Source: Puniceicoccaceae bacterium (lineage in GTDB: Bacteria > Verrucomicrobiota > Verrucomicrobiia > Opitutales > Oceanipulchritudinaceae). From it: DNA of 64,000 bases. Both the position numbers and the translations under genes were made by a program. Each line of letters starts with the position of its first letter. Position 1 is the stretch's first letter. Under the pieces are notes generated by a model. The model searched no databases. It was given only the letters and a program-made list of their open reading frames with translations, and was not told the origin of the DNA. Below, in pieces: positions 27,356 to 60,022 of the stretch. The stretch spans positions 238,717 to 302,716 of the forward strand of contig JBFOMH010000004.1 of assembly GCA_040830765.1 (NCBI GenBank), given 5' to 3'.

Positions 27356-28745
27356 TTCCAGCGATTACCCCCGCGTGATTTATGTGATAACGAGCATGCT
27401 GCTGTGTAACTTGGCCTTTGCCGGACCGTCTGCGATAGGCATCCGGGAGGAAAAGGTGATGGGGCAGGCTGAAAAACAGGGGCTGCGGCTGGCGAACAGC
27501 GTCCTGGGGAACAACCGGGAGCGGTTTGTCAACTACACGACGGAAGCGGGCGTCTGGCGGACGCAGAGTGACGGGACGTGGACGAGTGGCTTTGTTCCCG
27601 GGATGTTCTGGTACCTGTGGGCCCTGACGGGTGAATCCAGCTGGCGGGACAAGGCGATGCACTGGACCGAGGGGACGCGTTCCCGGGCGACAGCAACGGA
27701 CAATGATACCGGATTCCAGATCTATTGTAGCTTTGGGCTGGGATACATGTTTGATGAGACCCTGCGCAGCGACTATGGTGCTGTGATGCGCCAGGGAGCC
27801 AAGACGCTGGTTGACGAGCGGTATAACGCGACGATTGGCTGTTTCCGGTCCTGGGACCAGAACACCAGCAATCCGACCTCCCTGCCATTTGAGGTCAATA
27901 TTGATCAGATGATGAATCTGGAACTGATCCTCTGGGCAGGACAGAACGGAGGCCCGGCCGGGTATGTCGACTATGCGGTCAGTCATGCTGACAAGACCTG
28001 GGAACACAATGTCCGGGAAGATGGAGGAACTTACCATGTGGTGGCCTACAACCTGGATGGAACGGTGGATTACAAACGAACCCATCAGGGATGGACAACC
28101 GACTCGACCTGGTCGCGTGGCCAGGCATGGGCCGTCTACGGGTACACCATGGTCTACCGCTACACAGGCCTGCCGCGAATGCTGGAACGGGCGAGAATTT
28201 GTTATGATTTCTTCATCAATGAAACCCTGAAGGACGATTTCAACTACGTTCCTTACTCTGACTTTGACGCCCCGCTGGACAGCCGGAATCCGCGGGATAC
28301 CTCTGCAGCGGCAATTGTCGCTGCAGCGGCCATCGAGCTATTTGAGATAACCGGGGAAAAGGCGTTTCTGACGGATGCGGAAGCGATTATGGAGCACCTA
28401 TCCTCGCCGCGTTACTTCAGCATTGGGACCAATTACCAGTCCCTCCTGCTGGCGGCATCGGAAAAGTGGGGCCGCGGGGAAGTCGGAGCGATTTTCGCCG
28501 ATTATTACTTCCTGGAGACCCTTTGGCGCTGGAACGGGCTGGAGAGGGAACCAGGCGTGGTCACCGGCTCCTGGGGCGGTTATGACATGCTCGACTGGCG
28601 GTTTGTTGACACAGGCAGCTGGATGGGTTGGTTAAGTGCCTCGGCAGATCCTTATGTTTACAATTACAAGATAGAAGGGTGGATGTATGCCTACCCGGGA
28701 ACGCAGTCTGTAACCGGCGGCTGGTTCTATCGTTACAATCCCTAA
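27351..28745 (+). CDS. Secreted GH88-family unsaturated glucuronyl hydrolase with a C-terminal aromatic domain
   Basis: Motifs WTSGF.PG.FW, DTGF, NIDQMMNLE, HQG..DSTWSRGQAW, DTSAAAI and ADYYFLE; N-terminal hydrophobic signal-like segment; extra ~60-aa Trp/Tyr-rich tail. Confidence 0.85.
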   Translation: MNSSDYPRVIYVITSMLLCNLAFAGPSAIGIREEKVMGQAEKQGLRLANSVLGNNRERFVNYTTEAGVWRTQSDGTWTSGFVPGMFWYLWALTGESSWRDKAMHWTEGTRSRATATDNDTGFQIYCSFGLGYMFDETLRSDYGAVMRQGAKTLVDERYNATIGCFRSWDQNTSNPTSLPFEVNIDQMMNLELILWAGQNGGPAGYVDYAVSHADKTWEHNVREDGGTYHVVAYNLDGTVDYKRTHQGWTTDSTWSRGQAWAVYGYTMVYRYTGLPRMLERARICYDFFINETLKDDFNYVPYSDFDAPLDSRNPRDTSAAAIVAAAAIELFEITGEKAFLTDAEAIMEHLSSPRYFSIGTNYQSLLLAASEKWGRGEVGAIFADYYFLETLWRWNGLEREPGVVTGSWGGYDMLDWRFVDTGSWMGWLSASADPYVYNYKIEGWMYAYPGTQSVTGGWFYRYNP

Positions 28746-28767
28746 CTCCTGAAAAGAAAGTCAATAT

Positions 28768-29787
28768 ATGAGAAATGAATCCAAAATTTGTGTCGTTTTA
28801 GACGACTGGGAAAAGGCCAGTTTTACGCCGCCTGCTGTTTTGGAAGAACTGGGCAGCATCAGTCAAAATGTCACCTTTGCAGAAGGGAAGCAGTTCCCGG
28901 ATGGAGCGGGATGGCTGGACTGGCTGAAGGCGGAAAAGCCGGAAATCCTGATCAGCGGCTGGATGACACCGGGGCTGCCGGAAAATACGCTCGAAGAAGT
29001 ACCTGAGCTCAAATACGTCTGCCACCTTGTCGGATCGATCAAAAACACGATTCCCGAAAAGCTGATCCAGGACGGCCTTATTGTTACCAATTGGGGTAAT
29101 TCGGTTTCCCGGACGATCGCTGAAAGTGCCCTCATGCTGGCCATCGCAGGTCTCCGCCGGGTGTCCTACTGGACGATGGAGATGCATACCCGGGGCGGTT
29201 GGAAGGAGCGAACCTCTGTCGTCACGGGGTCCGTTTTCGGCCGCAAGGTCGGGTTGCATGGATTCGGGGCCATTTCCCAGGAATTGCGCAAGCTGCTGGT
29301 TCCGTTTGAGGTCCCGGTCATGACCTATTCACCAAGCGTCCCCGACAGTATCCTGGAGGAGAAGAACGTGCAACGGGCCAATTCCCTGGAGGAGCTTTTT
29401 TCCTCCAATGATGTCATTGTCGAACTGGCGGCCCTGACGGAAAAGAACCGCGGCATCGTCACCGAGGAGCTCCTGCGGATGATTCCGGAGGGAGGCGTCT
29501 TCGTCAATGTGGGACGGGGTGCGGTTGTTGATGAAGAGGCTTTGGCACGGATCGCCGAGGAAGGGAAGATCCAGGTCGCACTTGATGTCTACGGGGAGGA
29601 ACCCCTTCCATTGGATTCCCCCTTCAGGAAGCTGGACCAGGTCCTGACCCAGCCGCACCTTGGCGGTCCCACCGTCGATCGCCGCCAGGATGCATCTTGG
29701 TATGGATTGGCCAACATTCGCCGCTACCTCAACGGCGAGGAGTTGCAAAGCCAGATTACGGCTGAAGTCAGTAAACGGATTACTTAG
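28768..29787 (+). CDS. D-isomer-specific 2-hydroxyacid dehydrogenase family protein
   Basis: Motifs GLHGFGAI, FVNVGRGAVVDE, LDVY..EP and PHLGG. Confidence 0.88.
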   Translation: MRNESKICVVLDDWEKASFTPPAVLEELGSISQNVTFAEGKQFPDGAGWLDWLKAEKPEILISGWMTPGLPENTLEEVPELKYVCHLVGSIKNTIPEKLIQDGLIVTNWGNSVSRTIAESALMLAIAGLRRVSYWTMEMHTRGGWKERTSVVTGSVFGRKVGLHGFGAISQELRKLLVPFEVPVMTYSPSVPDSILEEKNVQRANSLEELFSSNDVIVELAALTEKNRGIVTEELLRMIPEGGVFVNVGRGAVVDEEALARIAEEGKIQVALDVYGEEPLPLDSPFRKLDQVLTQPHLGGPTVDRRQDASWYGLANIRRYLNGEELQSQITAEVSKRIT

Positions 29788-29842
29788 TTTACGGCATTCG
29801 TTACACCCGTCCGGAACGCCGGGCATGTTTAAAGGAAGACCG

Positions 29843-31945
29843 ATGAAGCGTATCCAAATCTTAAGTACAATCTTTGCCTGTGCCCTGGGTGGTACCATGG
29901 TGTCCGGTCATTCGGATCCCCGCCATCTGGTCCCGGATGAGGCACCACGGACCTGGATCCTGCACGGGCAGCAGGCGGCCTTTGCTGAATTCAGCCAGGG
30001 AGAAGGCGCAGCCTATTTTGAAACCATCAAGGCCGACCTTGATGCATACTGGATGGATTGGTCGTTTCCGGACGAGCCGGCGACCTACGGGGATCCAGAA
30101 CCAAGCAAGCGCACCAGTGAGATGGTTGACAAATGGCGGGCGATGCAGGACCTCACGGGGCAGGTGACAGGAGTTGCTGAAGCAGCGACACTGGTCTGGC
30201 TGGTCACGGGGGAAACAGTGTACCTTGAAAAGGCCCGTGACTTCCTCCTTGGGGCCACAAGCTGGGATCCCCTGGGCTCAACAGGCATCGATTACAACGA
30301 TGAGGCACACTTCCGGTTATTCAGAAAACTTCCCCAAATCTACGACCAATTGCGGCCCTACCTGACAGCAGAGGAAAAACAGCAGGTTCTCGAACATCTA
30401 AGCATCCGGGGCAACCGCAACATGGCTTCCATCCTCGAGCGTGGAGTTGCAGAGGTGAAGCGGAACTCGGTCGAGAAATCCCCACCCAGTCATTCGGTGC
30501 GCTTTATGCCGATGACGGGGCATGCGGCCCTGGCCCTCTGGGACGACCTGCCGGAGGCCCGGGATTGGTTTGATTTCGTCTACCACTGGTACCGCGATGT
30601 CTTCACGCCCTGGGGTGGGGACGATGGTGGATGGGCTGAGGGACCGGCCTACTGGAGGGGTGTTTATGAGCATGCTGTTTTCCAGGATGCTCTCCTGGCA
30701 ATCGGCGATTCGCTGGCCTACAACCAGCCATTCTGGCGCAACACGGGCTATTTTCAGGTTTATTTCGTCCAGCCTTATCCGACAACCGGTTTCGGGGACC
30801 TCTCCAACGGGGGGCAGTTCAACATGGAGCCGGGGGTGAAACACTTTCTCGACCACTTGGCCCGTGTTAATGGCGATGGTCATCTCATTGCCTACACCCA
30901 AAATTATGAGGATGCGCGACCCTTGCCAAGGAACATGGGAATGAAGGTTCTCTACCGGGCTTATCCGGTGGCGGCAGAATATTGGGTCCGCGAATTTATT
31001 GCTTCAGACCGTCCGATGCCGGAACCAGCCTCCCTGACGGATATTCCCGGCTCCCGGCATTTCCGGGGAATTGGCTGGGTTGCCATGCACAGTGCCCTTG
31101 GGCAGCCGGAGGAGGACATCATGCTCGCCTTCAAGAGCAGCCTTTATGGATCCTTCAGCCACAGTCATGGCGACCAGAATTCCTTTATCCTCAATGCCTA
31201 TGGGGAGCAATTGGCGATTAACTCCGGATACCGGGAGTATCACCGGTCCCAGATGCACAAGTACTACACCCGTCACACCGTGTCGAAGAACAACATTCTC
31301 ATCAGTCGCCGCGGTCAGGAAGTGCAGGACAAGACGGCAACCGGGCGGATAAGTCGGTTTGAGACGGGAGATCGATACGTCTGGACCACCGGGGATGCGA
31401 CGGTGGCCTTCAATACCATGCAGGCCCGCGACGACGAGGTGAGGCAGGCTCTCAGGGATATCGTCTTTGTCGATAACCGGTACTTTATCATTCGTGACCA
31501 CGTTCGTTTGCGCTCTCCCGGGCGCATCGACTGGCTTCTCCATGCACGTGGTCCGTTCCGCCATGATGAGACCAGCGGATCCATGCTTATCGAGCAAAAT
31601 GGAGTCTATCTCCATGGCCGGCTGCATTCCATGCATAGCGGATTGCAGATGAAGGCATGGACTGGATTCGAGATCGAGCCGGATCCGAAGTACAAGGACC
31701 CTGTCTTCATCAAGACTCAAGCCTACCTGCGGGAACCCGCTGTTGATCAGGCCCACTTCCAGGCGAACACAAAGCAAGACAAGGATGAGCACATCGTTTT
31801 CGCCATTCTATGGCCCTCGCGGTCCATGGAAGACGGGGCCGCACTGGAGATTGTCCCTGTCGACGCTGAGACAATCGAGGTCATCCGTCCCGACGGTAAA
31901 ACCGACCGAATCGTCCTTAACGGGGACAGCCTGAGGATTGACTAA
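29843..31945 (+). CDS. Heparinase II/III-domain exo-lyase, PL15-like oligoalginate lyase, with signal peptide
   Basis: Motifs YNDEAHFR, SHSVR, GGWAEGPAYW and FKSS.YGS.SHSHGDQNSF.L.AYGE.LAI.SGY, which resemble characterised PL15 enzymes. N-terminus MKRIQILSTIFACALGG is signal-like. Confidence 0.8.
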   Translation: MKRIQILSTIFACALGGTMVSGHSDPRHLVPDEAPRTWILHGQQAAFAEFSQGEGAAYFETIKADLDAYWMDWSFPDEPATYGDPEPSKRTSEMVDKWRAMQDLTGQVTGVAEAATLVWLVTGETVYLEKARDFLLGATSWDPLGSTGIDYNDEAHFRLFRKLPQIYDQLRPYLTAEEKQQVLEHLSIRGNRNMASILERGVAEVKRNSVEKSPPSHSVRFMPMTGHAALALWDDLPEARDWFDFVYHWYRDVFTPWGGDDGGWAEGPAYWRGVYEHAVFQDALLAIGDSLAYNQPFWRNTGYFQVYFVQPYPTTGFGDLSNGGQFNMEPGVKHFLDHLARVNGDGHLIAYTQNYEDARPLPRNMGMKVLYRAYPVAAEYWVREFIASDRPMPEPASLTDIPGSRHFRGIGWVAMHSALGQPEEDIMLAFKSSLYGSFSHSHGDQNSFILNAYGEQLAINSGYREYHRSQMHKYYTRHTVSKNNILISRRGQEVQDKTATGRISRFETGDRYVWTTGDATVAFNTMQARDDEVRQALRDIVFVDNRYFIIRDHVRLRSPGRIDWLLHARGPFRHDETSGSMLIEQNGVYLHGRLHSMHSGLQMKAWTGFEIEPDPKYKDPVFIKTQAYLREPAVDQAHFQANTKQDKDEHIVFAILWPSRSMEDGAALEIVPVDAETIEVIRPDGKTDRIVLNGDSLRID

Positions 31946-31957
31946 GCAATCTGAGCC

Positions 31958-32782: not shown

Positions 32783-32789
32783 CTTTTCG

Positions 32790-32803
32790 TTAATAATTAT
32801 GAA
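32790..32803. promoter_or_regulatory. Putative operator, copy 2 (TTAATAATTATGAA), between the divergent isomerase and SDR genes
   Basis: 13/14 match to the palindrome, in a 79-bp divergent intergenic region. Confidence 0.7.
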
Positions 32804-32861
32804 TTTTATGTTGCCTGAATCGGGTAGGGAGGCAAGTTAATTTGCCAAGAGAGGAAAGACC

Positions 32862-33626: not shown

Positions 33627-33668
33627 TCCTCGCCTCCTGTCCACTGCCGGCAAAATTATTAGAAATCC

Positions 33669-33682
33669 ATAATAATTATTAT
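33669..33682. promoter_or_regulatory. Putative operator, copy 3 (perfect palindrome ATAATAATTATTAT), upstream of the LacI regulator
   Basis: Perfect 14-bp palindrome about 70 bp upstream of the regulator start; suggests autoregulation. Confidence 0.7.
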
Positions 33683-33751
33683 ATTGTCAGGCGAAGTTTC
33701 TTTCTTAAAAGAAAGGAAATGCACGGAAAAATTTCTTAACGAGGCAGTGGA

Positions 33752-35071: not shown

Positions 35072-38000
35072 ATGAAGCGACACGTCTGTACACGAACCCT
35101 GATAACCTTTTCCGCTCTCCTTGGCGGGAGCATTTTGTTCGGACAAGAGAACCAGTCGAATGATAATTCGCTGGTCTTTGAGTTGTCCCCGTTCGAAGTC
35201 TCGACTGACCGGGACGTCGGCTATCTTTCGACCAACTCCACTTCGGGGACCAGCTTGAACATCGCCATCAAGGATCTCCCGATGGCCATTCAGGTGGTCA
35301 ACCAGGAGCTCATTGGTGACCTGCAGGCCTCCACGCTTAATGAGGCCCTTGATTACACAGCTGGGGTTTTCTCGAGCAGTACAGCCGCCAGCAGTGCGGT
35401 CACCCGCGGAGGTCCAACCGGTAATGACCGCTCCATTTCCTCAGCCAGTGGCGGAAGATTCTCCAACCGCCTCTTCATCCGTGGCGTGGCGACCCCTTAC
35501 CAGAACCGGGATGGTTTCCGCAACGGCGGGCTTGTTATTACTCCAAACAGCGCCATTGCATTGGGGGGACTACTGGATTCGGTCAACATGGACCGTATTG
35601 AAGTTGTCCGCGGACCGAACTCCCTCCTCTATGGGGTCGGTGTGCTGACCGGTATCGCCAATGTGATTGCCAAGAAGCCGCTTTCCGAAAACCGCTTTCA
35701 GGTGGGAACAACAGTGGGCAGCTTCAATCAGCTGAGGGGAACCGCTGACATTACCGGCCCGCTGAATGCTGAATGGATTCCGGGTGAGTTGAACTGGAGG
35801 ATTGCCGGAGCCGCGGAGGCCCGGGACGGGTATGTTGATTACACCGCATCGGAAACCCGGTATTGGGTTGCCCAACTGGATTACCATCCGACCAAGTGGA
35901 TGTCCGTTTTTCTTGAATACCAGAGTGGTTATGATGAACGGCAGGGAATCGGTGGCCGTTGGATCCTTGATTCGGCAGGCAAGAACACCGAATTCCGCAA
36001 TGAGTTTGATGAGCCCTACAACTGGGCCCGGCGCAAGGGTGAGATCGAGGGTCTCCGTCCAATCCTTGCCGATACCTACGACACCAATGTGAACTACATC
36101 GTGCGCGGCACGACCGAGGATTCCGGCGCTGGCTGGAAACTGGGTGATGAGACGTTCGTCGGGGGTGGATTTAACGAGAAAACGTACCGGATCAGTGGAC
36201 CGGACACCTTTGCCGAGCGCGACGAGGATAATATTCTCATCGACCTGACGCTGCGGCCCCTCGAAAACCTCACCGTTACGGCTGGTGCATTTTTGACAAG
36301 CCAGGAAACCGAAGAGTTGAATGTCAACATGAGCACCACGGGCTCAACCCCGCAGGCCCTGATTACGGAAATCACCTCGGATGCGCAATTTAACGCACTC
36401 TACGAGAGCAATGGTATCTATGGGATCAAAATGCCCGCGATTGTCCAGGATTACTTCGGTCTGCAAACCGAAATCAACCAGGACACCCATCCCGGGGACT
36501 GGGTGGTTCCCAATACGACGGATGACCTGAAGTACGTTCAGTATTATTGGGACCGGGAAATCGTTCGCGCAGATAGTGAACAGTACCGGATCCGTGCCGT
36601 GTACGATTTCGAGCATGAACTGTTCGGTTCGACCGTCGAGCATACGCTCCTTGCCGGTTTCTCCTACATTGAGGATGACGTGGACTTTCCGGATGGCAAC
36701 CTGACCACTTCCAATGCCCGTGCGAAACGCGACACTTATACCGTCCGGGACGAGAATGGAGAAATCGTCCTCGATGACAATGGCGATCCGGTCATTGCTG
36801 AATCCGAGTATACCAGTGTCATCTCCAACTACCCGGGTGGCATTCCGGATCTTCCCAACGGAGTCAGCAACCAGTATGCCCGGGATTTCGATGCCCTGCA
36901 TTACCGGTCAATAGCTGACTTCAGCCCCATCCGGCTAGGGGACTCACCAGTCGCCAGGGCTGGGGACATCTACCTGAACCAGGTCATCAAGCAGGAGGGC
37001 AAGTATTTCATCTATCAGGGCAAGTTCCTTAACGACCGCCTTAACATCGTCTTCGGGCTCCGTGAAGACAGCTACAATGCCCGCCAGTTCACCTATGACC
37101 GTGTTGGTGTTGACAAGGACTACCTGCTGGAAGCCGCTTTGAATTCGGTCATTTTCACATCCCGCAACAGTGCCGGAGGCGCGGCCATTCCGGCTGATGC
37201 GCCTGGATTCAGCGATCAGGCCACGAAGGAAGAGGTGCTCAATTCCATCTCCTCCACCGGCAAGGGAATTCCCAGTGATGTCCAGGCTGAGTTTGATGCC
37301 TGGGATCCTGCCGACAACGGCGGCCAGCTGAATCCGTACGGATTTACCGTGGCCCAGAACAATGTCTTTGCTGATTACATGAGCATTGGCACACGTGGCG
37401 GCGGTTACATTACCAGCTTTTACTCCAGCAACATCGAAGGGGAGAACAGTGGTTTCTTTGGCCTCTCCAACCGTGGCGGTGATCCAGGAGAGACTTTCGG
37501 TGCTCTACCCGATACGACCATTAATATTTTCGAGGAGGATGTTAAGGCCACCAGCGGAACGTTCGGTGTCAGCTATGCGGTCACGGATAACTTCTCCGTT
37601 TATGGCGTTTATTCCGAAGGCATCAGTCCGAATACCGCCCTTCGAGACGGCTCCGGTGAAATTATCCCGGCTGAGCGGGCCGAAAACAAGGAGTTCGGCA
37701 TCAAGTTCGATATCGAGGACACTCCGGTTGGTCGCTTCTCCGGCAGCGTGGCAGTCTATGAAATTGATCGGTACAATGGGATCTGGAACATGCCCATTGC
37801 CCCGTCTCCAGCCAGCTGGATGGACGCCGGCACGAGCCAGAACCGGGTCCGCTGGGGCACCCCAACGTATGATCCGAACGCCCCGACGGTTTATAACATC
37901 AAGGCTGAATATCTGAATGAGTACCTTGGAGAGGTCTACAATCTGGATCCTGACAGTCTGAACCTGATCTCCCAGAGCGGAGTAGGGCTGGTTCAACAAG

Positions 38001-39271
38001 TCGAGCTGGATGAACTACCGGATGATCTGACCCGCCGCGAAAAACAACTTCTGCGCCGGGAAATCAGCCAAACGGCGATTATTCCTGCCGAATATGCTCA
38101 GGATCGTATCTCCGGGAACGACTTTGGCGGGGCGATTTCCACCCAGACCGCCATCATGACCGCCAGTGGCCTCGACGAGCTGTTTGAAGTCACCCTCTAC
38201 AGCACGGAGGAACAGGCATTTGTCACCAAGCAGATCAGTCCCTTTGGCCCCATTTATGCAGCGTTTATGAACCGGGAACTGGACCCCACCAAGAATCCTC
38301 TGATTCTGCCATTTACCCCGATTGACTATCGCCCCAACCGGCAAACCCAGCCCAATCCGTGGAACAATCCGGGAATTCGCAATGGTGCCTTGGTCGTTTT
38401 TGATGAGACTATCACCGGCTATGAATTGGAACTGTTCTGGACGCTGAACGAAAACCTCCAGTTCATTTTCGCCTACAGCCATACCGAGCGGGAAGCTCTT
38501 GATGATTTCCAGTACTCGGATTACGAATCGATTGTCGGAACGGAGATCAATGGCTTTATTGCTCCCTTTGGCGAGATATACCGTGAGTATGGCTGGGAGA
38601 ATGCCGGTTACCAATTGGCCTGGGTGGACCATGATGCCTATGCCCCGCTTCGGGATGCCGGCGACGGCACAGTCACTTTGGATGATCTGGGTGCTGCCGT
38701 TGTGGAAGTGGTTCCCAGTGAACAAGTTGATGAAACGATTTCTGTGAGTGAAATGGCCTCCCGCAATGCCCAAGGCCAAATCCCGCTCTTTGTTGATCAG
38801 AACGGAGCCATCGTTGACCGGAACAACTTGCCGCGGCCGTCCGATTACAGCAATTCCATCGACGGCGTCAGCCTGAACTTCAATCCGGAAGATGAGGTTA
38901 CGGCCCGATTCCGCTACAAGTTCACCGAGTCCAAGCTGGACGGCCTTGCCATCACCGGCGGGGTCAAGTACACAGGTCCTTCCAAAACGAGTGTCTTGTT
39001 CCGCTCACAGAGTCCGCTCAACGAATTGACCTTTACACCGGAGGCATCTGACCACGTTGTCTTCGACATTGGGGCCTCCTATGACTGGGTCTGGGATAAT
39101 ATTCGATTCCGCTTGCGCGTGAATATCTACAACCTTTTCGATGATACCTACGACGTGACCACGACCACCCTGTCGACGCCCAATCCGATCACGGGGCAGA
39201 AAATCACCCGCAGGACCGAACGTTTCTACACACCAACCACTTGGAGGATCGGTTTGTCCGCCTCCTTCTAA
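35072..39271 (+). CDS. TonB-dependent outer-membrane receptor (very large, 1399 aa)
   Basis: Signal peptide; VFELSPFEV; plug motifs IKDLPMAIQVV and DRIEVVRGPNSLLYG; C-terminal NIYNLFD...PTTWRIGLSASF with terminal Phe. Confidence 0.92.
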   Translation: MKRHVCTRTLITFSALLGGSILFGQENQSNDNSLVFELSPFEVSTDRDVGYLSTNSTSGTSLNIAIKDLPMAIQVVNQELIGDLQASTLNEALDYTAGVFSSSTAASSAVTRGGPTGNDRSISSASGGRFSNRLFIRGVATPYQNRDGFRNGGLVITPNSAIALGGLLDSVNMDRIEVVRGPNSLLYGVGVLTGIANVIAKKPLSENRFQVGTTVGSFNQLRGTADITGPLNAEWIPGELNWRIAGAAEARDGYVDYTASETRYWVAQLDYHPTKWMSVFLEYQSGYDERQGIGGRWILDSAGKNTEFRNEFDEPYNWARRKGEIEGLRPILADTYDTNVNYIVRGTTEDSGAGWKLGDETFVGGGFNEKTYRISGPDTFAERDEDNILIDLTLRPLENLTVTAGAFLTSQETEELNVNMSTTGSTPQALITEITSDAQFNALYESNGIYGIKMPAIVQDYFGLQTEINQDTHPGDWVVPNTTDDLKYVQYYWDREIVRADSEQYRIRAVYDFEHELFGSTVEHTLLAGFSYIEDDVDFPDGNLTTSNARAKRDTYTVRDENGEIVLDDNGDPVIAESEYTSVISNYPGGIPDLPNGVSNQYARDFDALHYRSIADFSPIRLGDSPVARAGDIYLNQVIKQEGKYFIYQGKFLNDRLNIVFGLREDSYNARQFTYDRVGVDKDYLLEAALNSVIFTSRNSAGGAAIPADAPGFSDQATKEEVLNSISSTGKGIPSDVQAEFDAWDPADNGGQLNPYGFTVAQNNVFADYMSIGTRGGGYITSFYSSNIEGENSGFFGLSNRGGDPGETFGALPDTTINIFEEDVKATSGTFGVSYAVTDNFSVYGVYSEGISPNTALRDGSGEIIPAERAENKEFGIKFDIEDTPVGRFSGSVAVYEIDRYNGIWNMPIAPSPASWMDAGTSQNRVRWGTPTYDPNAPTVYNIKAEYLNEYLGEVYNLDPDSLNLISQSGVGLVQQVELDELPDDLTRREKQLLRREISQTAIIPAEYAQDRISGNDFGGAISTQTAIMTASGLDELFEVTLYSTEEQAFVTKQISPFGPIYAAFMNRELDPTKNPLILPFTPIDYRPNRQTQPNPWNNPGIRNGALVVFDETITGYELELFWTLNENLQFIFAYSHTEREALDDFQYSDYESIVGTEINGFIAPFGEIYREYGWENAGYQLAWVDHDAYAPLRDAGDGTVTLDDLGAAVVEVVPSEQVDETISVSEMASRNAQGQIPLFVDQNGAIVDRNNLPRPSDYSNSIDGVSLNFNPEDEVTARFRYKFTESKLDGLAITGGVKYTGPSKTSVLFRSQSPLNELTFTPEASDHVVFDIGASYDWVWDNIRFRLRVNIYNLFDDTYDVTTTTLSTPNPITGQKITRRTERFYTPTTWRIGLSASF

Positions 39272-39320
39272 TGGCTGTACATAGTCTAACCATCAAATGA
39301 ACCCAAAACAAATAAAGAGT

Positions 39321-40322
39321 ATGAATAAGAAAACCCTAATCCTCACCCTTTCCCTGGGTGTTGCGGTCTCCTCGCTGAGTTTCGGTGAGTGGGCCCTCGT
39401 TAATGATTTCAATGAAGCTGCCGATTTGGACAGCGTCATGGATCAGACTAATCAGGAAGGTTCCAATGCCCGCACCGAGCTGGTGGATGGCAAGTTGGCT
39501 GCTTTCCCGGGTGTTGCCCTCGAAAACACTTCCAACCTCTTCGCCGGTGTCGACCTCGGTGTCGACCTCCGTGCTGCTTCAGAAGCTGCTGAAGGCCCGA
39601 TCACGCTTTACTTCCAGCTAATCCAACCGACTGTTTCGGATGGTGCTGGCGGGACCCGCAAGGCGATTCTTGATACCGTTTTCGGTCTGACCCACTTCGA
39701 TCCCGAACAGTGGACCACCGAAACCTACAATTCCTACAATGCCATGGGCCGGATCAACTTCGGCAATGACAATCTCGAAGTTCGCGATGGTGGCTCCTAT
39801 GTAGCGAGCGGCGAAATCCTCCAGGCTGACGTGGTTTACGAACTCTGGCTGGACGTCGACTTCTTCTTCAATGAAGTCCAGATGTACGTCAAGGGTGGCC
39901 AGTGGACGGAGCGCACCATGCTGCTCGGCACAGACGGCAACGAATTCCTCGGCTTCCGTAAGGTTCCGGGCTTCGAAGTTGACGGTACCACCCCGCAGAC
40001 GGTCGATTACTTCCTCATCGCCCTCAGCCGCGGTAACCTCGCTGCTGAAAAGGGTCAGGACCCGACCTACTTCGACAACATCTATGTTGACACCACTGGT
40101 GTGAACGCCACATCCCCGGTTGGCGATGGTGGCGGTTTCGGCATGTGGGGCCCCTGGGAAATCATCGATGAAGCTGGCAACGTCGATACCGGCGCTTGGA
40201 TGGGCTTCGTCAATGTCGCTGCCGACCCCTGGATCTACAGCTATAGCCTCGACCAGTGGCTCTATGTTGATTCCAATGGTATCTCTTCCAGTGGCAGCTG
40301 GGTCTACGTCTTCAACTACTAA
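39321..40322 (+). CDS. Secreted protein of unknown function (beta-sandwich-like body plus C-terminal aromatic domain)
   Basis: Signal peptide MNKKTLILTLSLGVAVSSLSFG; acidic, beta-rich body ending in YFDNIYVD; Gly linker; ~60-aa Trp/Tyr tail. Confidence 0.8.
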   Translation: MNKKTLILTLSLGVAVSSLSFGEWALVNDFNEAADLDSVMDQTNQEGSNARTELVDGKLAAFPGVALENTSNLFAGVDLGVDLRAASEAAEGPITLYFQLIQPTVSDGAGGTRKAILDTVFGLTHFDPEQWTTETYNSYNAMGRINFGNDNLEVRDGGSYVASGEILQADVVYELWLDVDFFFNEVQMYVKGGQWTERTMLLGTDGNEFLGFRKVPGFEVDGTTPQTVDYFLIALSRGNLAAEKGQDPTYFDNIYVDTTGVNATSPVGDGGGFGMWGPWEIIDEAGNVDTGAWMGFVNVAADPWIYSYSLDQWLYVDSNGISSSGSWVYVFNY

Positions 40323-40348
40323 GACCTGAAGCGTTTTATACCTTCTTC

Positions 40349-40448: not shown

Positions 40449-43400
40449 ATGAAAACGTCTAACCCTACCCATCCGCTGTCTTCCCCAAAGGCACATTTGA
40501 AAGTCGTCTGGATAACTATCATAAGCCTGATGGTTGCCCATGCGGGACTTGGCCAGGGAGTGCTCCTGGAATCGGACTTCGAGAGCGACACCGCTGGTGC
40601 TCAGCCGGCGGGCAACTGGACATTCTCGCCTTCCAGCAATACAGCTGACAATGGGAGTGTTGTTGTCGACGGGACAACTACGCCATCCAATCCGCTGACT
40701 GGAAAGAGCCTTTACGTGTACGACTTGACCAGTGGCTCCAGTACGCGTGTATACCAGAATCTCAACGACGGGGTAAATGTCTCTGCGGCCCGGGTATCCT
40801 TTGACTTCCAGCGCATGTTCGAGGATGCCAATCCCGATACCCGCGTCCACTTCACGATTGGCCAGGTCAATGCCAGCCTCAACAACTCGGACTTTCGCCT
40901 GTTTGAGGTCCGGATGATGAACAACGGGGACTTCCGGGTGGAGTACTCCCGGGACGGCATGGGTGGAGACCGCGGTTCAGCGGTCGTGGCCTCTTACGAT
41001 ACGGCCAACCCGAACACGCTGGTCCTCTTCATCAATTCCCATGGAACGGAGACGGTTGACTACGATGACGGCAGCCTATCCGGCTCCCTGGCCCCGAACA
41101 TGATGGATGTCTACCTAAACGGTATATCCATCGGCAGCTACTTGACCCTGAAGACGCCGGATCCGGAGGGAGCCCCGCTAGTTGATTTCTGGGCCAGTGA
41201 TGCCGATCTTGGGCAGGTCATGTTCTACCAGGACACGTCGCGGCAAGGTGGGATTGTCTTTGATAACATCGTGGTGACCGAGCTCGCCGTTGGTGGTAGT
41301 GGCGGCGGGCCTGTTGATCCGATTCTCTACATCGACAACTTTGACTTTGAATCCGAGACAGTCGGCCAGCAGCCGGTGATGCCCTTCCCGGCGAGTTTTT
41401 CACCCGGCTCCAACTCATCGACCAACGGTTTTGTCGTCGTTGATGCAACCTCCGATCCGGCCAATCCGATGGATACCGGCAAGGCGCTCTATGCCTACGA
41501 TTTCCATGGGGACCTTTCGACCGGAACATCCTCCCGCATGCAGTTTGATTTTGCTCCCACGAACACGGATAATGTCCGGGTAGATTTCGACTTCCAGCGG
41601 ATGTATGCCGTGGCCGTCGAGGATGAGGATACCCGGATACACGTAACCGTGTGTCCCGCTGGAACCTCCACCAACAATTCCGACTTTCGACCGTTCGAAA
41701 TACGGATTTTGAACAACGGTTCCCTCGTCGTGAATTACAATCCCACAGGTGCCCTGGAAGATGGGCGCGAATCCGAAGTGGTCGCATCCTACGACATTAC
41801 CGGGTCCAACCGCCTCACCTTCCTTGCCAATGGCAACAACGGGGATGCGCTGCCCTATGATGATCCGGAACTGGGGATGGGGGAAGTCCCCGCCAATGCG
41901 ATGGTCCTTTTCCTGAACAACATCAAGGTTGGCGAGTATGGATTTATCAATACACCCGATCCAGCAGCTGCCGCCCAGATAGTTTTCTTTGAAACAACAC
42001 AGGAGCTGGGACGATTCGGCATTTACCAGGACAGCAAGCGCCAGGGGGGAATCGTCTTTGACAACCTTTCCATCCAGGAATTTGCCAAGCTCGGGGCACC
42101 CCTTGCCCCGAGCGACCTCTCGGCAACTGCCACCGGACCCGAATCGATTAACCTCATGTGGACGGATAATTCGGACAACGAAACCGGATTTGTCGTCGAA
42201 ATGCTTGCCGATGCTGAATGGATGGAAGTGGAAGCCATTGCCGCGGATTCGACATCCTACGACGTCACCGGCCTTTCCCCGGAAACAGAATACACTTTCC
42301 GGGTCCGGTCGACCAACGGAACGCTCTCGGAGCCGAGTAATGAGGCAATCGCTACAACTGAGCAGCAGCTGACGCCACTCATCCAGACGGATCCCCAGGG
42401 AGACCTGCTGCCGTCCGGATCCGCCACGACCCTGGCGGTTGTGGCAACCGGGCCAGGTAACCTTGAGTACCAATGGTATGTCGGCCAGAGCGGGGTGACG
42501 ACCGATCCGATCGCCGGGGCCACAGAATCCACTTACACGACACCTGAGCTCACGGCGACAACCGACTATTGGGTCCGGGTGACGAATACCAATGGCTCTG
42601 CTGACTCTGTAACCGCAACCATCGAGGTGTTTGAACCGCGGACGATCCGGATCGTCTCGATTGACCAGCTGAATCTGCTCCTGCCGGATGCCTTGCCGGG
42701 GGACACCTATGTCATTGACGCTGGCACCTATCCGAATACGCAAATCAGCTTTGCCCCGATGGGGACACCCAATGCCCCTGTCACGCTCAAGGCGGAGCGT
42801 CCCGGTGAAGTTATCTTCACCGGCAATTCCTACATCCGGGTCGGCGGGGACTGGAACATCGTCGAGGGCTTCCTTCTCACCGATGGTTGGAACCAGAGTC
42901 TCGACCAGGCGATCAGCTTCCGTACCAGTTCGCGCCAAGCCACCAACAGCCGGGTCACGAACTGCGCCATTATCGACTACAGTCCACCCAATCCGGCCAC
43001 GGATACGGACTGGGTCGGCATGTACGGGGTAAACAACCGGTTCGATCACAATCTCCTTTCGGGACACAGCAACAAGGGGGTCACCCTGGTCGTCTGGCGC
43101 AATCCCGGCAAGGAGGACCACCACATGATCGATCACAACCACTTCCGGTATCGCGGTAATGGCGGTGGAGAGAACGGCTGGGAGACCATCCGGATCGGGA
43201 CCAGCGGCGACTCGCTCAGCTCCTCCTACTGTGTCGTCCAGTACAACCTGTTTGAGGAATGCGACGGGGAAGTGGAGATCATCTCCAACAAGTCCGGTCA
43301 TAACATTTATCGTTACAATACCTTCTGGCGCAGCCAGGGAATGCTGACCCTGCGGCATGGCGATAACTGCCTTATTGAGGGGAACATTTTCCTCGGGGAA

Positions 43401-44357
43401 GGTGTCTCCAACACAGGAGGAATCCGGGTGATTGGAGAAAACCATACCATTATCAATAATTACATCGAAGGAACCACCGGACGGCAGGACGCGGCCATAC
43501 CGGTTTATGCCGGTGTGCCCAATTCTCCCCTGAACCGGTACTTCGTGGCCGACAACGCCTACATCGCCCATAACACGATTGTCGATGTAATAGGTGCCCA
43601 CGTTCTCATCGGGGCCGGATTCGGCACCAGCGACAGAACCGTTCTGCCCACCGGCGTGGTTGTGGAAAACAACCTCTTCGCGCAAAGGAACACCACTTCA
43701 AGCACCTACAAGGGCCCCGCCGCCGATGGTGAGGCGGTTCTTGATGCCACTTACTCTGGTAACATTGCCTCCTCGGTCTTCACAGGACCTCCCGCTTCCG
43801 GGATCGATGAAATATCGGTGCCGTTTACCTATGGCTCCTTCGGACTCCTTCGTCCCGAATCTGGCAGTGCGGTTGTAGACGCCGCGATTGGCTCCACCAC
43901 CGAGCTTGACCTTGATGGTCAAACCCGGGACGCCAACCCGGATGTTGGAGCGGATGAACTCGTGGAAACACCCGGGGTCAACGAGGGCGGTCCAATCCAG
44001 CCCCTGCAGACCGGACCGGACTGGCGCGAGATGGTTGACACCTCACCGCCATGGGTGGGGCCGGCCTTGCGCGCCGGAAGGGCCCTCCAGTCATCCTGGT
44101 TCGGGACCTTCTACATCGGTGGCAATGACTGGGTCTACCAGCCCACGATTGCCTGGGTCTATGTTGGTGCCATCAGTTCCACCGACAGCATGTGGTTCTG
44201 GAGTGATGTCCTTCAGTCCTGGACATGGACGAACAAGGATTACTTCCCCATCTTCTACGATGCCACGCGGGAAGCGTGGGTCTATTACGTGGCTGCTGCC
44301 GGTGGCGGCGCTTACCTCTTCGATTATTCTCAGGGAGCCTGGACCTTTGTCCCTTGA
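40449..44357 (+). CDS. Secreted multimodular PL6 polysaccharide lyase (alginate lyase/chondroitinase B family)
   Basis: Signal peptide, two tandem ~245-aa repeats, Fn3 (PSDL.A...LMWTDNSDNETGF), Ig-like domain (YQWY), PL6 beta-helix (NG.ETIRIG, EIISNKS, LTLRHG, GGIRV) and a ~100-aa aromatic tail. Confidence 0.88.
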   Translation: MKTSNPTHPLSSPKAHLKVVWITIISLMVAHAGLGQGVLLESDFESDTAGAQPAGNWTFSPSSNTADNGSVVVDGTTTPSNPLTGKSLYVYDLTSGSSTRVYQNLNDGVNVSAARVSFDFQRMFEDANPDTRVHFTIGQVNASLNNSDFRLFEVRMMNNGDFRVEYSRDGMGGDRGSAVVASYDTANPNTLVLFINSHGTETVDYDDGSLSGSLAPNMMDVYLNGISIGSYLTLKTPDPEGAPLVDFWASDADLGQVMFYQDTSRQGGIVFDNIVVTELAVGGSGGGPVDPILYIDNFDFESETVGQQPVMPFPASFSPGSNSSTNGFVVVDATSDPANPMDTGKALYAYDFHGDLSTGTSSRMQFDFAPTNTDNVRVDFDFQRMYAVAVEDEDTRIHVTVCPAGTSTNNSDFRPFEIRILNNGSLVVNYNPTGALEDGRESEVVASYDITGSNRLTFLANGNNGDALPYDDPELGMGEVPANAMVLFLNNIKVGEYGFINTPDPAAAAQIVFFETTQELGRFGIYQDSKRQGGIVFDNLSIQEFAKLGAPLAPSDLSATATGPESINLMWTDNSDNETGFVVEMLADAEWMEVEAIAADSTSYDVTGLSPETEYTFRVRSTNGTLSEPSNEAIATTEQQLTPLIQTDPQGDLLPSGSATTLAVVATGPGNLEYQWYVGQSGVTTDPIAGATESTYTTPELTATTDYWVRVTNTNGSADSVTATIEVFEPRTIRIVSIDQLNLLLPDALPGDTYVIDAGTYPNTQISFAPMGTPNAPVTLKAERPGEVIFTGNSYIRVGGDWNIVEGFLLTDGWNQSLDQAISFRTSSRQATNSRVTNCAIIDYSPPNPATDTDWVGMYGVNNRFDHNLLSGHSNKGVTLVVWRNPGKEDHHMIDHNHFRYRGNGGGENGWETIRIGTSGDSLSSSYCVVQYNLFEECDGEVEIISNKSGHNIYRYNTFWRSQGMLTLRHGDNCLIEGNIFLGEGVSNTGGIRVIGENHTIINNYIEGTTGRQDAAIPVYAGVPNSPLNRYFVADNAYIAHNTIVDVIGAHVLIGAGFGTSDRTVLPTGVVVENNLFAQRNTTSSTYKGPAADGEAVLDATYSGNIASSVFTGPPASGIDEISVPFTYGSFGLLRPESGSAVVDAAIGSTTELDLDGQTRDANPDVGADELVETPGVNEGGPIQPLQTGPDWREMVDTSPPWVGPALRAGRALQSSWFGTFYIGGNDWVYQPTIAWVYVGAISSTDSMWFWSDVLQSWTWTNKDYFPIFYDATREAWVYYVAAAGGGAYLFDYSQGAWTFVP
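40560..42083 (+). repeat. Tandem duplication of a ~245-aa domain inside the PL6 gene (copies ~40560-41285 and ~41322-42083)
   Basis: Both copies contain DFES, FSP.SN...NG.VVVD.T..P.NP, FDFQRM, DTR.H.T, NNSDFR.FE.R..NNG, VVASYD, TPDP and YQD..RQGGIVFDN. Confidence 0.9.
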
Positions 44358-52681: not shown

Positions 52682-54613
52682 TCAGGGTGTCTGGACGAAC
52701 TGGCCGGTATTGCCATTCCAGAACCAGGCTTGGCTTCCCCAGAGGCCGGTACCTTGGTAATAGTACATCCAGGTGCCACTATCAAGGAGGTAGAGGTAGG
52801 GGAACAGGGCCGGCGTGGTGTAGAAGTTGCCCAGGAGTGGCAGCGTCGAGAATCCATAGAGGCGGCCGTCCGGGGCCCCGGTGAAATACATCCAGCCCAG
52901 TTCCAGATGGGCGACCCAGGGCCAGAACTCGGTGTAGTAGACCCCAAACCATTCCGAACCATGGTAGACGGTTCCCTCGAAGGCATAAGCGCCGTAAACG
53001 GGATAGGGAACGGACGCATCCGGTGTCCACTGGAGGCTGTCAAGGTAGCCGGCATCCTCGCCTTCCTGGGTATAGGGATCCTTGATATAGCGCCATTCGA
53101 CGATGTGTTCCCCTTCCGGGATAGGCAGCGTCACTTGAACCGGTCCTTTTTCTCCGGAAAGGAAGACGGGCTCATCGCCTTCCTGAACCGGCGCGCCATC
53201 GAGATAAAGATGGATGGCATCGTAGATATTCCCCTCATTGGGTGACTGGGGATTGGTGTAATCGGGATTTTCCTCGCAGGAAACGCTCCATTCGAAGGTC
53301 AAGGTCCCCGGTCCCAGGATGTCGAGCCGGAGGGTTGAGCTGCCAAGTGAACGGACCGGACCCGAGCGCAACCGGTTACCTGCATCAAGGTGCCAGTTGC
53401 TGTCCCCGGTATTGGAGAACTGGAGCCATGGCTGGGCCAGGATGGATCGGGCGAAAGGATTATTGCCCCGCGTGCGAGCCGCGACGGCGGAACTCTTTGG
53501 GGGGCGGTTGCCGTTGGCCGCGAACGGCTGCACTTGATAGTGATAGACGTGGCCGGGATCGAGGTTTGCGGTGTCGGTGTAGGCTGTTGCATCCGCCGGT
53601 AGGGTGGCAATAGCTTCCAGAATTCCGCGATCCTGACGAAAGACTGTGTAGCCTGCCTCTCCCGAGGAGTGATCACTCCATTCGAGGTTAATCCAATCCT
53701 GCCCCATGGCAGTGATGGCCAGGTTGTCGACCCGGCGCAGGCCATCCATCCCGCGCTCGGCAATGGCCTGTTCAATCCATTCCCAGGCGTTGTCGTCGAT
53801 GGCCCGGACAAGCATCCCGTCACTTCCGTTGCTGCCGACGACAATTCCTGCCATAAGCCAGTTCTGGAGATCATCGAGGGCATACATGGGTCCACCGCTG
53901 GAGCCACCGTAGGTGGTAACGCCTTCGAAGTCGTACATGGCGATCCAGAGGTTCTCGCTGTCCAGTTCCTCAATGCCTTCCAAACCACCCCACCAGCAGA
54001 AGTAATCCCCCGGGGAGGTGCTGTGCATGAGTCCCCGGTTGCCGGTCGGTACTTGCGGTGATTGGACCGGGTAGCCGACATGTAGTTTCTCCCGGCTGTC
54101 CCGCATGATCCCCACTGCTCCGTCGGGGTCGATGTGAACCTCCGGATAAAGCGCGAACACCTCGTTGATAAAGATTGAACTCAGATATCCGACGGCGAAA
54201 TCAATATTGAAGGTATCAGGTGAGCTGAGGCCGGGGCCGCTGTCGTCGTTTTCCTTGCGAAAGTCATAGGAGGTCCAGCGAAGCCACTTCACGGGGGAAA
54301 CCTCCGTCGTTCCCGGGGGGGTGGTTGCACCGTTGTGATAACGTGGATTGTAATCAATAAAGGAGGCTGGAATCCACTCGAAGTTGACATCATCATAGAT
54401 GACATGGGCGGCCGTGGCGATGACCCCGTTGCCGACGAGTGAACCACTGGCCGAACCGCCACCGGAGGTCATTCGACCGTTGTAAAGATAGGGGACCGTC
54501 TGGACTGCCGCTTCGGTCAAGGGTTCCGGGAGAATGGTCTCCTGTCCGTGGGCCAATGGCGACAAGAGGATGACCAAACCCGTCAATACTGCAGTGGTTC
54601 GCATATGCAGCAA
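52682..54613 (-). CDS. Secreted trypsin-like (S1) serine protease with Fn3, a beta-sandwich module and a C-terminal aromatic domain
   Basis: Signal peptide; catalytic triad motifs TAAHV, DFAV and GGSSGGP; Fn3 (LEWSD...Y.D..L.PG..YHY.V); ~100-aa Trp/Tyr tail. Confidence 0.82.
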   Translation of the reverse strand: MLHMRTTAVLTGLVILLSPLAHGQETILPEPLTEAAVQTVPYLYNGRMTSGGGSASGSLVGNGVIATAAHVIYDDVNFEWIPASFIDYNPRYHNGATTPPGTTEVSPVKWLRWTSYDFRKENDDSGPGLSSPDTFNIDFAVGYLSSIFINEVFALYPEVHIDPDGAVGIMRDSREKLHVGYPVQSPQVPTGNRGLMHSTSPGDYFCWWGGLEGIEELDSENLWIAMYDFEGVTTYGGSSGGPMYALDDLQNWLMAGIVVGSNGSDGMLVRAIDDNAWEWIEQAIAERGMDGLRRVDNLAITAMGQDWINLEWSDHSSGEAGYTVFRQDRGILEAIATLPADATAYTDTANLDPGHVYHYQVQPFAANGNRPPKSSAVAARTRGNNPFARSILAQPWLQFSNTGDSNWHLDAGNRLRSGPVRSLGSSTLRLDILGPGTLTFEWSVSCEENPDYTNPQSPNEGNIYDAIHLYLDGAPVQEGDEPVFLSGEKGPVQVTLPIPEGEHIVEWRYIKDPYTQEGEDAGYLDSLQWTPDASVPYPVYGAYAFEGTVYHGSEWFGVYYTEFWPWVAHLELGWMYFTGAPDGRLYGFSTLPLLGNFYTTPALFPYLYLLDSGTWMYYYQGTGLWGSQAWFWNGNTGQFVQTP

Positions 54614-58168: not shown

Positions 58169-59004
58169 GGTGGCTTCTTCTTTTCCTGGCTCTCGTTGCG
58201 GCTGCCATTCCTTCCAGGGCAGTTGTTGAAGAGCCATCTGTGGCGACTTGGAATATCCGCAACCTGGGCATCGTCGACCGCTTCGAGGAAGGGCGCTACC
58301 GGCTGGCCTATCCGATGCCGGAGTCCCGCAAGCAGTCGGTCCGCCAACTCCTGTTAATGGAACGCCCCACGATTCTCTTTCTCCAGGAGGTGGGCTCGCC
58401 CGCCTTTCTTGAGGAGTTGCGCCTCGACCTCGCCGCCGAGGGACTGGTCTACACCGACTTTGCCTTTTCCGGCCATCCCGATAGCCGGACCGGGTTGGCC
58501 GTCCTTTCCCAGATCGCCCTGGCCGAGGTTGTCTTTCATCAGCCAGGGCCTATCCGGCGCGGTGTTCAGGAAGTCGCACTCTGTATCAATGGTACCCGCT
58601 ACCGCTTTTTCCACATCCATCTCAAGAGCCGCTATTCAACGGATCCTGAAGACCCCGACGCTTTCCAGGAGCGGCAGGCTGGAGTCCTTGCCCTGGCGGA
58701 ATTCCTCCAATTCCAATCGGAACGCCGCCCAGCCGCCACCCTGGCTCTTCTCGGTGACTTCAATACGCCCTTCCACGACCCGCTCCTCGACCCACTCCTG
58801 GAGTTCTGGCAACCTCTGCCGGCCGCTGACGGTGCAGGCCAGATATGGACTTACTTCCACTTCCGTTCCGGCTCCCGGGAACGCCTCGACGGATTCTGGT
58901 CACCCCGCTCCCAGCCACCACCGCTCCTCCCCGCACAGGTCCTTCCCATGACGGATTGTCCCTCCGACCACCGCCTCCTCATCGCCCCCCTCTTTTTTCC
59001 ATAA
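58165..59004 (+). CDS. Exported endonuclease/exonuclease/phosphatase-family protein
   Basis: Signal peptide; motifs ATWNI.N, LQEV, HLKS, LGDFN and SDH. Confidence 0.85.
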
Positions 59005-59038
59005 TTTGACTTGCCCTCGCCTCCTTAATGACAATTGA

Positions 59039-60022
59039 ATGCCATTAATGGAAATAAACTGGGAAACGGGAAAAATACGATGGGTGCTGCTTGTGGCGGG
59101 GATACTGCTACCGGCGATGATGCAGGGGGAGCGTCCGCTGACGCTGCAGGTGGGCTTTGAGGATCTGGCCCTTGAGGGCAACGGGGTGCAGACCTACGCT
59201 GGACCTGGAGGAGGTGTCTATTTTAACGGTTCGGATGGTCAGGGCGGCTTTGCCAGTGAGGGAGCCTTTTTCGTGAATACATTCACCGACTGGGGCAATG
59301 GATTCACGTCCTGGGGAGGCTGGGCCTATTCAACCACGAGCGACGTGGAAACGGGGGGATTCCTCAATGAATTCAGTGCCTTTTCCGGGGGACCGGCGCA
59401 AGGCACGACCTATGCGGTGGCCTATGTTGACAGTTTCTCAGGCCTGGACCCGCTGGAGATCGCCTTGCCTGCCGGCTGGAAGGCCCCGCAGCAGGTGACG
59501 GTAACCAACACGACTTATGCGGCGCTGGCCATCCGGGATGGCATCAGCGGGGATTTTCCGGTCGATCCATTTTCGACAAACGACACCTTCAAGCTGACGA
59601 TTACAGGCAAGGACCGCACCGGGGCGACGACGGGCACAGTGGAGTATTACCTGGCCGATTACCGGGGCGATGGGGAGTCTCCCTTTCTTCTGGAGACCTG
59701 GCAGCCGGTGGATTTGAGCACTTTGGGTACCGCCGTGTCCTCCCTGGCGCTGAGCCTGGAATCGACCGATGTTGGTCAATTCGGCATGAACACCCCGGCC
59801 TATGTGGCCATCGACGACCTGATCCTTGGGGCAACGCCCCTGTGGGCACGGTTTGATCAAGACGTCAGCGGGTGGGTCGAAACCGGATCGTTCCTGGGCT
59901 GGATATACCCGGAAAGTGACTTTTATGCCTACGTCTATTCGCTTGAGCGCTACGTCTACCTGACGGAAGAGGCGGCATCAGAGGAAAGCGGGGCCTGGAT
60001 TTATGTTCCCAGCGGGGATTAA
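59039..60022 (+). CDS. DUF4465-like secreted protein with a C-terminal aromatic domain
   Basis: Motifs SWGGWAYS, YAVAY, VTNTTYA, F.LTITG, YLADYR, W..VDLS.LG and S.D.GQFGMNTPAY.AIDDL are typical of DUF4465; followed by a ~60-aa aromatic tail. Confidence 0.8.
   Translation: MPLMEINWETGKIRWVLLVAGILLPAMMQGERPLTLQVGFEDLALEGNGVQTYAGPGGGVYFNGSDGQGGFASEGAFFVNTFTDWGNGFTSWGGWAYSTTSDVETGGFLNEFSAFSGGPAQGTTYAVAYVDSFSGLDPLEIALPAGWKAPQQVTVTNTTYAALAIRDGISGDFPVDPFSTNDTFKLTITGKDRTGATTGTVEYYLADYRGDGESPFLLETWQPVDLSTLGTAVSSLALSLESTDVGQFGMNTPAYVAIDDLILGATPLWARFDQDVSGWVETGSFLGWIYPESDFYAYVYSLERYVYLTEEAASEESGAWIYVPSGD

Follow-up and report, generated by a model that had tools for sequence, protein, structure and literature searches.

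Why do three proteins with unrelated bodies, encoded in one stretch of bacterial DNA, end in the same short aromatic tail? The stretch, referred to below as the window, comprises 64,000 nucleotides of a Puniceicoccaceae bacterium of the order Opitutales (assembly GCA_040830765.1, contig JBFOMH010000004.1, positions 238,717 to 302,716 of the forward strand). It is part of contig C4 of a 3.99 Mb genome that is 96.9% complete. A prediction made from the sequence alone (hereafter the original prediction) had proposed that the tail is a new sorting or surface-anchoring signal, and this interpretation is partly supported by the analysis reported here. The tail, which we call module A, is an independently folding all-beta domain built of aromatic beta-hairpin units. 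It is found on Sec-type exported proteins and is homologous to a longer domain, module B. Together, A and B probably form a new family of surface-display modules of Opitutales.

The first of the three carriers is a GH88 unsaturated glucuronyl hydrolase-like protein of 464 residues (27351..28745, plus strand; PF07470, E 1.3e-7), whose copy of module A covers 58 residues (28569..28742). The second is a 341-residue protein without a Pfam family (39297..40322, plus strand), the partner of a TonB-dependent receptor, with a copy of 59 residues at 40143..40319; both proteins have a signal-peptide-like start. The third is a 327-residue DUF4465 protein (59039..60022, plus strand; E 4.9e-43 in the Pfam scan), with a copy of 60 residues at 59840..60019. 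The three tail peptides first quoted were confirmed as exact translations, each closing at the stop codon of its own gene, and the passengers are indeed unrelated. The Gly/Pro linker said to precede the tail is present in two of the proteins and missing from the DUF4465 protein; genome-wide, the 10 residues before the domain contain only 11.5% Gly and 8.2% Pro.

A hidden Markov model (HMM) was seeded with the three tails and iterated against all 54,337 six-frame open reading frames (ORFs) of the genome. It converged on 61 copies of a 57-residue domain in 55 ORFs, with a gap between the weakest member (E 4.3e-8) and the next match (E 0.0047), so that the resemblance of the three tails is not a chance one. 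The domain or a trailing half copy ends at most 2 residues from the stop codon in 51 of the 55 carriers. Signal-peptide-like starts, as called by an in-house heuristic rather than by SignalP, were found in 48 of them, compared to 628 of 2898 other genes. The prediction of numerous carriers, almost all of them exported and with the domain at the C-terminus, thus held. Among the seven that fail the heuristic, five have a start that looks signal-like on inspection; the other two are an orphan fragment and the second half of a gene that a stop codon cuts in two. Gene starts are approximate, because the calls come from a simple codon-score script. In this genome, a GSDH-family carrier (C24:9679-11187) is split by an in-frame stop codon.

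The consensus drawn from 316 distinct sequences reads W-[AG]-G-Y-x5-G-x-V-D-T-G-x-[FW]-L-G-W-L-x-V-x3-P-W-V-[YW], followed by x3-L-x2-[WY]-x-Y-x-P-E-x6-G-x-W-x-Y. The pattern first proposed had omitted a conserved Pro (71%) that precedes the second Trp strand. Aromatic residues make up at least 77% at ten positions, and hydrophobic ones at least 80% at about 25 of the 57, a share which would exceed what a domain of such size normally buries. The final residue is mostly non-aromatic. All 61 copies of the genome carry a net negative charge (mean -5, range -1 to -9). The AlphaFold model of the receptor partner's copy is all-beta (pLDDT 94.5, pTM 0.78), with short strands and no helix of 4 residues or more. 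None of the 55 carriers has a membrane helix, and a single doubtful lipobox was found among them.

Position and copy number of module A are flexible. Two full copies are present in 6 carriers and an extra half copy in 8. In 4 of the 55, module A is N-terminal or internal: two pectate lyases carry it directly after the signal peptide, and two proteins have an internal pair. The best 150 database matches, a set in which two-copy proteins are over-represented and which draws in part on this genome, comprise 139 terminal ones (within 8 residues of the end) and 11 that are not terminal; in two of the 150, an internal copy lies far from a terminal one. Finally, two passenger-free genes encode a signal peptide and one or two copies of A only (L121, L118). 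Because it is also N-terminal, internal, tandem and on passenger-free proteins, module A is not a cleaved C-terminal signal, and the notion of a strictly C-terminal signal of the type IX secretion system (T9SS) or sortase type is weakened accordingly.

Orphan A domains were also noticed in short ORFs without a usable start, in loci L110, L114 and L116 (genome G018), L108 (G005) and L120 (G361), as well as at C5:68295-68507 in the present genome. They look like what is left of pseudogenes in genomes undergoing reduction, and some lie behind genes with frameshifts.

What does module A replace? The best 120 homologues of the window's DUF4465 protein divide by tail as follows: A closes 26 of them (the window protein itself included), a PEP-CTERM-like tail, as called by a regular expression, 70, some other helix-plus-basic tail 7, PF18962 5, and module B 1, while 11 have a different tail or none. 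No homologue has two tails at once (0/120), and in close homologues A starts at the same residue position as the PEP motif. Neighbouring paralogues gave the same picture: one pair on C12 (59% identity) consists of an A and a PEP-CTERM protein, and on C34 three A proteins neighbour one with PEP-CTERM (61-64% identity). In a syntenic receptor-partner-GH16 locus, the partner's tail is B in this genome and A in two relatives, and a leucine-rich repeat (LRR) protein ends in another tail here (FFR-type, see below) and in A-A in another genome. Module A therefore fills the slot of PEP-CTERM and of the T9SS tail on homologous passengers. Such alternative, mutually exclusive tails on one passenger are the pattern of choice-of-anchor proteins, a likeness in the way they work and not a membership, in which one passenger meets LPXTG, PEP-CTERM or T9SS anchors (bioRxiv 10.1101/2023.03.06.531300). 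Swapping of functional tails on one passenger family has similarly been described for GlyGly-CTERM, LPXTG and PEP-CTERM (PMC3237569). One carrier of B possesses a choice-of-anchor J domain. Tails are often inherited along with the passenger, the tail of a carrier's own orthologue ranking first of 55 in 23 of 54 cases, but tails 68-72% identical also occur on unrelated bodies.

The likeness to the PEP-CTERM/exosortase system (TIGR02595, PF07589) goes as far as a suffix on unrelated signal-peptide proteins, with the same junction on DUF4465 proteins and paralogues. Unlike PEP-CTERM, module A lacks the PEP motif, the membrane helix and the basic cluster, being a folded beta domain of acidic charge which also occurs in N-terminal, internal and tandem positions. 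That it is not PEP-CTERM, as the original prediction had it, was corroborated: no carrier has a membrane helix after residue 40 (0/55), and neither NCBIfam nor Pfam returned a match. The C-terminal domain of T9SS cargo (PF18962, TIGR04183), known from Bacteroidota, is a folded all-beta terminal domain as A is, and the two share types of cargo, namely carbohydrate-active enzymes, LRR, cadherin, DUF4465, CotH and FG-GAP proteins. There is however no sequence match between them, neither for the three window tails against NCBIfam nor for the 61 domains against Pfam, and A is shorter and not strictly terminal. The Ig-like beta-sandwich of the T9SS domain is not listed in the fold searches of A, whose best Z is 3.3.

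The genome itself holds about 22 PEP-CTERM proteins. It also has a third type of tail, ending in aromatic-aromatic-Arg (FFR-type), on 17-18 genes (for instance C26:52701-55187): the regular expression gave 18 matches, one evidently false and none on carriers of A, B or PEP-CTERM, and an HMM of this tail did not expand beyond its 7 seeds.

Pfam matches were obtained for 25 of the 52 A passengers scanned. They include GH10, GH16, GH88, GH95, PL1, sulfatase, LRR, cadherin, RCC1, CAP and multiheme cytochrome c, and share no common substrate. The same spread was seen across the 83 passengers scanned from the best 150 database matches. Several carriers own a separate carbohydrate-binding module (CBM6, CBM9 or CBM96). 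A co-oriented A carrier adjoins 4 of 11 TonB-dependent receptor genes, compared to 49 of 2946 other genes (p 2.8e-5); the 11 receptors were found by BLAST (more than 600 residues), two shorter fragments being dropped. The receptor-partner pairing recurs in other genomes (L057, L122, L125). A multiheme cytochrome c with MtrC-like domains also carries A (C17:118028-119677; L016) and is a candidate surface-exposed redox protein.

Paralogues of A carriers frequently end in a different Trp-rich tail of about 110 residues, module B. Its profile (109 positions) was rebuilt without A carriers, because the unrestricted profile drifted into A. In this genome B has 37 carriers, 33 with a C-terminal and 4 with an N-terminal copy. 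Two of them lie in the window and had been missed when the three A carriers, themselves correctly found, were listed. One is a chondroitinase B-like/fn3/Ig protein (ORF of 1302 residues, 40449..44357, plus strand; B at 44031..44354, 108 residues), and the other an ORF of 643 residues without a Pfam family (52682..54613, minus strand; B at 52685..53020, 112 residues), both with B at the C-terminus. Module A aligns with the first half of B (hhalign 96%, E 1.6e-9, the best of 40 column shuffles reaching 1.9%), and the B profile recovers 40 of the 61 A domains at E below 0.001. Module B is internally repeated, since all four half-versus-half tests exceed 40 of 40 shuffles, and the model of the chondroitinase B-like protein's copy shows ten predicted strands (pLDDT 85). 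Together, A and B mark about 92 proteins of this genome.

The two modules differ in taxonomic range. Within Opitutales, 61 of the 201 genomes contain B and represent about twelve families; a phylum-wide sample of 301 gave 2 genomes with B from outside the order. Also outside Opitutales, genome G108 (C45, C20) encodes seven proteins with a shorter, ~75-residue form of B. A single A tail finds matches in 18/18 genomes of the window's family and 0/12 from other families, and the A profile in 5/5 genomes of the family and 0/295 others of the phylum. Among 200 genomes of the order, the profile matched 9/9 of the family; in addition, two stray genomes gave a strong match and nine a weak one (E 3e-5 to 1e-3), the weak matches being probably cross-matches to B. 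Module A is nearly confined to one family of Opitutales. The alignment of A with B, the repeats of B and its order-wide range, all read from sequence, suggest that A is a shortened form, specific to one family, of a hairpin-repeat module spread across the order. Among 1.84 billion representative proteins, 1063 match A at E 0.001. Named carriers are 'Puniceicoccaceae bacterium 5H' (12 matches) and a protein (P0289) that NCBI assigns to strain CK1056, a number that belongs to the cultured species Oceanipulchritudo coccoides. The number is printed as CK1506 in PMC10288369. The window's family (f1) is therefore probably the Oceanipulchritudinaceae.

Searches for a known family were negative, in agreement with the original prediction. 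NCBIfam (release 20) gave no match for 6 sequences, nor for 25 proteins including B carriers, and Pfam at E 0.1 assigned no family to the 61 A domains, the best being DUF7183 (2 of 61 members, E 0.011). PHROGs contained no match to A, and in the ESM Atlas only unnamed Verrucomicrobiota clusters matched. No fold match was obtained for A (Foldseek best E 1.9, VIA best Z 3.3, viral library best E 2.5) or for B (best Z 3.8, E 0.41), which does not prove a new fold. The PDB gave no accepted match to A; the best sequence match to a solved structure was the choline-binding module of LytB (7pl5), of the weakest grade (E 0.013). A match of B to a designed kelch protein of the PDB (E 0.00086; six 2.5-bit repeats) was rejected as a repeat artefact. 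The trimeric autotransporter anchor, with its obligatory C-terminal helix and its four long strands closing on an aromatic residue, was ruled out by the N-terminal and internal copies, the mostly non-aromatic last residue and the short strands. No description of A or B was found in the open-access literature, supplements excluded, and both are absent from NCBIfam release 20 and from the anchors listed in the available portion of bioRxiv 10.1101/2023.03.06.531300. We conclude that A and B are a real, uncatalogued family.

What could such a module do? Considering slot equivalence, position flexibility, variable unit number, receptor linkage and the lack of membrane helices, we put at about one half the probability that module A is a folded, uncleaved, non-covalent anchor by which enzymes, adhesins and TonB-receptor partners exported through Sec are displayed on the outside of the cell. 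A passenger would cross the inner membrane by means of its signal peptide and then fold; the folded passenger would cross the outer membrane, the most likely route being the genome's own T2SS (type II secretion system). The exposed Trp/Tyr surface of A would then bind a repetitive envelope component non-covalently and hold the passenger on the outer face. Candidate components are a lattice protein, a lipid of the outer leaflet or a surface glycan such as O-antigen or capsule. Avidity may rise with tandem and half copies, and depolymerases, binding proteins and adhesins would in this way be kept beside TonB-dependent receptors. The role proposed here parallels the lipoprotein anchor of SusD-like proteins, as well as attachment to anionic lipopolysaccharide (A-LPS) in Bacteroidota. 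Choline-binding repeats (PF01473, PF19127) resemble A in their aromatic beta-hairpin units, their variable number and their location at either end of unrelated surface proteins; A differs by having at most two 57-residue copies, in a diderm host. Other non-covalent anchors of Gram-positive bacteria are SLH, CWB2 and LysM.

Several observations weigh against an anchor. The strong terminal bias (51/55; 139/150) is equally expected of an export tag. Net negative charge, found in 61 of 61 domains, is awkward for binding to anionic LPS without cation bridging. A DUF4214 protein has been reported to bind O-antigen (preprint 10.64898/2026.09.02.748959), and DUF4214 proteins also carry B, which may be redundant there as an anchor; moreover, DUF4214+B genes lie behind a secretin gene. 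Last, homology to choline-binding repeats is unsupported. A non-covalent envelope-binding module, one of the two options of the original prediction, fits better than a strictly C-terminal signal of the T9SS/sortase type. The kinship with choline-binding repeats was not recovered in the profile test (hhalign 13.9, shuffle maximum 18.5; Cpl-1-type phage templates, low diversity, Neff 2.0). In addition, none of the 61 A domains matches the Pfam choline-binding models, the genome has no PF19127 match above cut-off, and Foldseek aligns A to C-LytA with an E of 7.4.

A tentative alternative, to which we give appreciably less weight than to the anchor, is that A and B are folded export-targeting domains selecting cargo for a secretin machine, of the type II or Amuc_1098/PilQ type, any retention being due to other domains such as DUF4214 or to receptor binding. 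The two functions could both hold. The genome encodes three exosortases, three secretins and a complete T2SS operon, and a GspD orthologue is present in 9/9 genomes of the window's family. SprA (TIGR04189) gave no match in the genome, but neither did control genomes. One of the secretins resembles Amuc_1098, its best NCBIfam match, while scoring below that model's cut-off; in Akkermansia, the Amuc_1098 protein is an abundant outer-membrane secretin (PMC4960237). In 5 of 14 loci, the Amuc_1098-like secretin gene is directly followed by a gene for a large signal-peptide Ig/DUF4214 protein ending in B, and in one more locus a single gene separates the two; most of these 14 loci were selected for a DUF4214 match. 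Among 20 further loci selected by secretin alone, the linked protein carries B in 3, an LVEVY-ending domain in 1 (f15) and an FFR-type tail in 1 (f12), so that two homologous linked proteins end in other lineage-specific tails, and 15 loci have no linked gene, which speaks against a tag. A B protein also follows a GspD-type secretin in two f5 loci, and the T9SS tail that A replaces on DUF4465 proteins is a true export signal. An export tag is best argued from the proteins that combine DUF4214 with B, in which the former may be read as the anchor and the latter as the tag. Internal copies of A are compatible with a tag too, because the substrate signals of type II systems are conformational. 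However, neither secretin profiles with the modules, since the Amuc_1098-like one is found in 183/201 Opitutales genomes and the GspD-like one in 139/201, far more widely than B (61/201), and the idea of a dedicated secretin partner was rejected for that reason. Prepilin-like genes within two genes of a carrier number 0/9. A single genome contains several unrelated tails (A/B, FFR-type, PEP-CTERM) that do not overlap, and it is not obvious what half copies, tandems and passenger-free proteins would contribute to a tag. No co-occurring dedicated translocon or processing enzyme, as the original prediction would have it, was found in our search.

Some side observations concern these secretin loci. 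In the present genome, the linked DUF4214+B gene is absent behind the secretin. The Amuc_1098-like secretin (C14:43843-45885; L148:5844-7886) is about 150-290 residues shorter at its N-terminus than six orthologues, its TPR-like region missing; the system is possibly decaying in this genome. In genome G089 (L151:3323-7414), the secretin-linked protein ends in a duplicated ~135-residue LVEVY domain that is absent from the present genome. In four loci of family f73 (L134:5624-15764, L135, L136, L139), a TolC/MFP/LolCE-like/ABC cassette comes after DUF4214+B proteins of ~2000 residues, which are candidates for S-layer-like proteins. The B-rich family f79 seemed to lack GspD, but this was a threshold effect. 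A link of the modules to the loss of class A penicillin-binding proteins was rejected, as these are absent in 188/201 genomes of the order regardless of the modules. Their transglycosylase domain was found in only 13/201, and the present genome has six Mur ligase matches.

Two further explanations seem improbable to us, and to a similar degree. In the first, A would be a substrate- or particle-binding module, a new CBM or adhesion domain, attaching released proteins to algal polysaccharide or other surfaces and not to the cell. An aromatic platform, tandem copies and an N- or C-terminal position are typical of CBMs, and many of the passengers of A are glycan depolymerases. Yet A sits on enzymes for different glycans and on non-CAZymes, several carriers already have CBM6, CBM9 or CBM96, no Pfam CBM model matches any of the 61 domains, and A swaps with PEP-CTERM, which is no substrate binder. 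In the second, it would be a dockerin-like docking or self-association module, by which different enzymes assemble with one another or on a scaffold protein, whether in the periplasm or at the surface. Its many-to-one use on unrelated enzymes, its tandem duplication, its large hydrophobic surface and the passenger-free proteins would fit, and the very weak fold neighbours, at background level, include aromatic beta-meanders (OCRE, Z 2.6-2.9). Bacterial dockerins have a duplicated calcium-loop-helix fold, unlike the model of A, which has strands only, and no scaffold candidate turned up, though without a usable repeat-protein scan.

Around two of its copies of A, the window holds a polysaccharide-utilisation locus (27351-46107). 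It comprises the GH88 gene, a heparinase-like lyase (29660-31945), a LacI regulator and a TonB-dependent receptor with plug and barrel (1399 residues; 35072..39271, plus strand), co-oriented with the adjoining A-tailed partner, and further the chondroitinase B-like protein and a beta-helix protein. GH88, dehydrogenase, regulator, receptor and partner genes are likewise clustered in locus L057.

Marine Opitutales degrade complex algal polysaccharides, and few studies have dealt with how the enzymes and binding proteins involved come to lie on the cell surface; for one Opitutales isolate, a paper of 2026 can do no more than suggest T2SS export (PMC13274419). A and B provide a sequence marker separating tailed from tail-less paralogues, such as two adjacent GH95 genes on C19, so that surface and periplasmic enzymes could become predictable across Opitutales. 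A position-flexible anchor of 57 residues would also make a compact display tag. It is possible, though we hold it doubtful, that A and B are the cargo side of a so far undescribed Opitutales display system, a new aromatic beta-hairpin fold that routes folded proteins to a secretin and then clips them to the outer envelope. If true, some 90 proteins per genome would be anchored in a fourth way, besides the lipoprotein, PEP-CTERM and T9SS ones, and the Sus-like uptake loci without SusD lipoproteins in these polysaccharide degraders would be explained.

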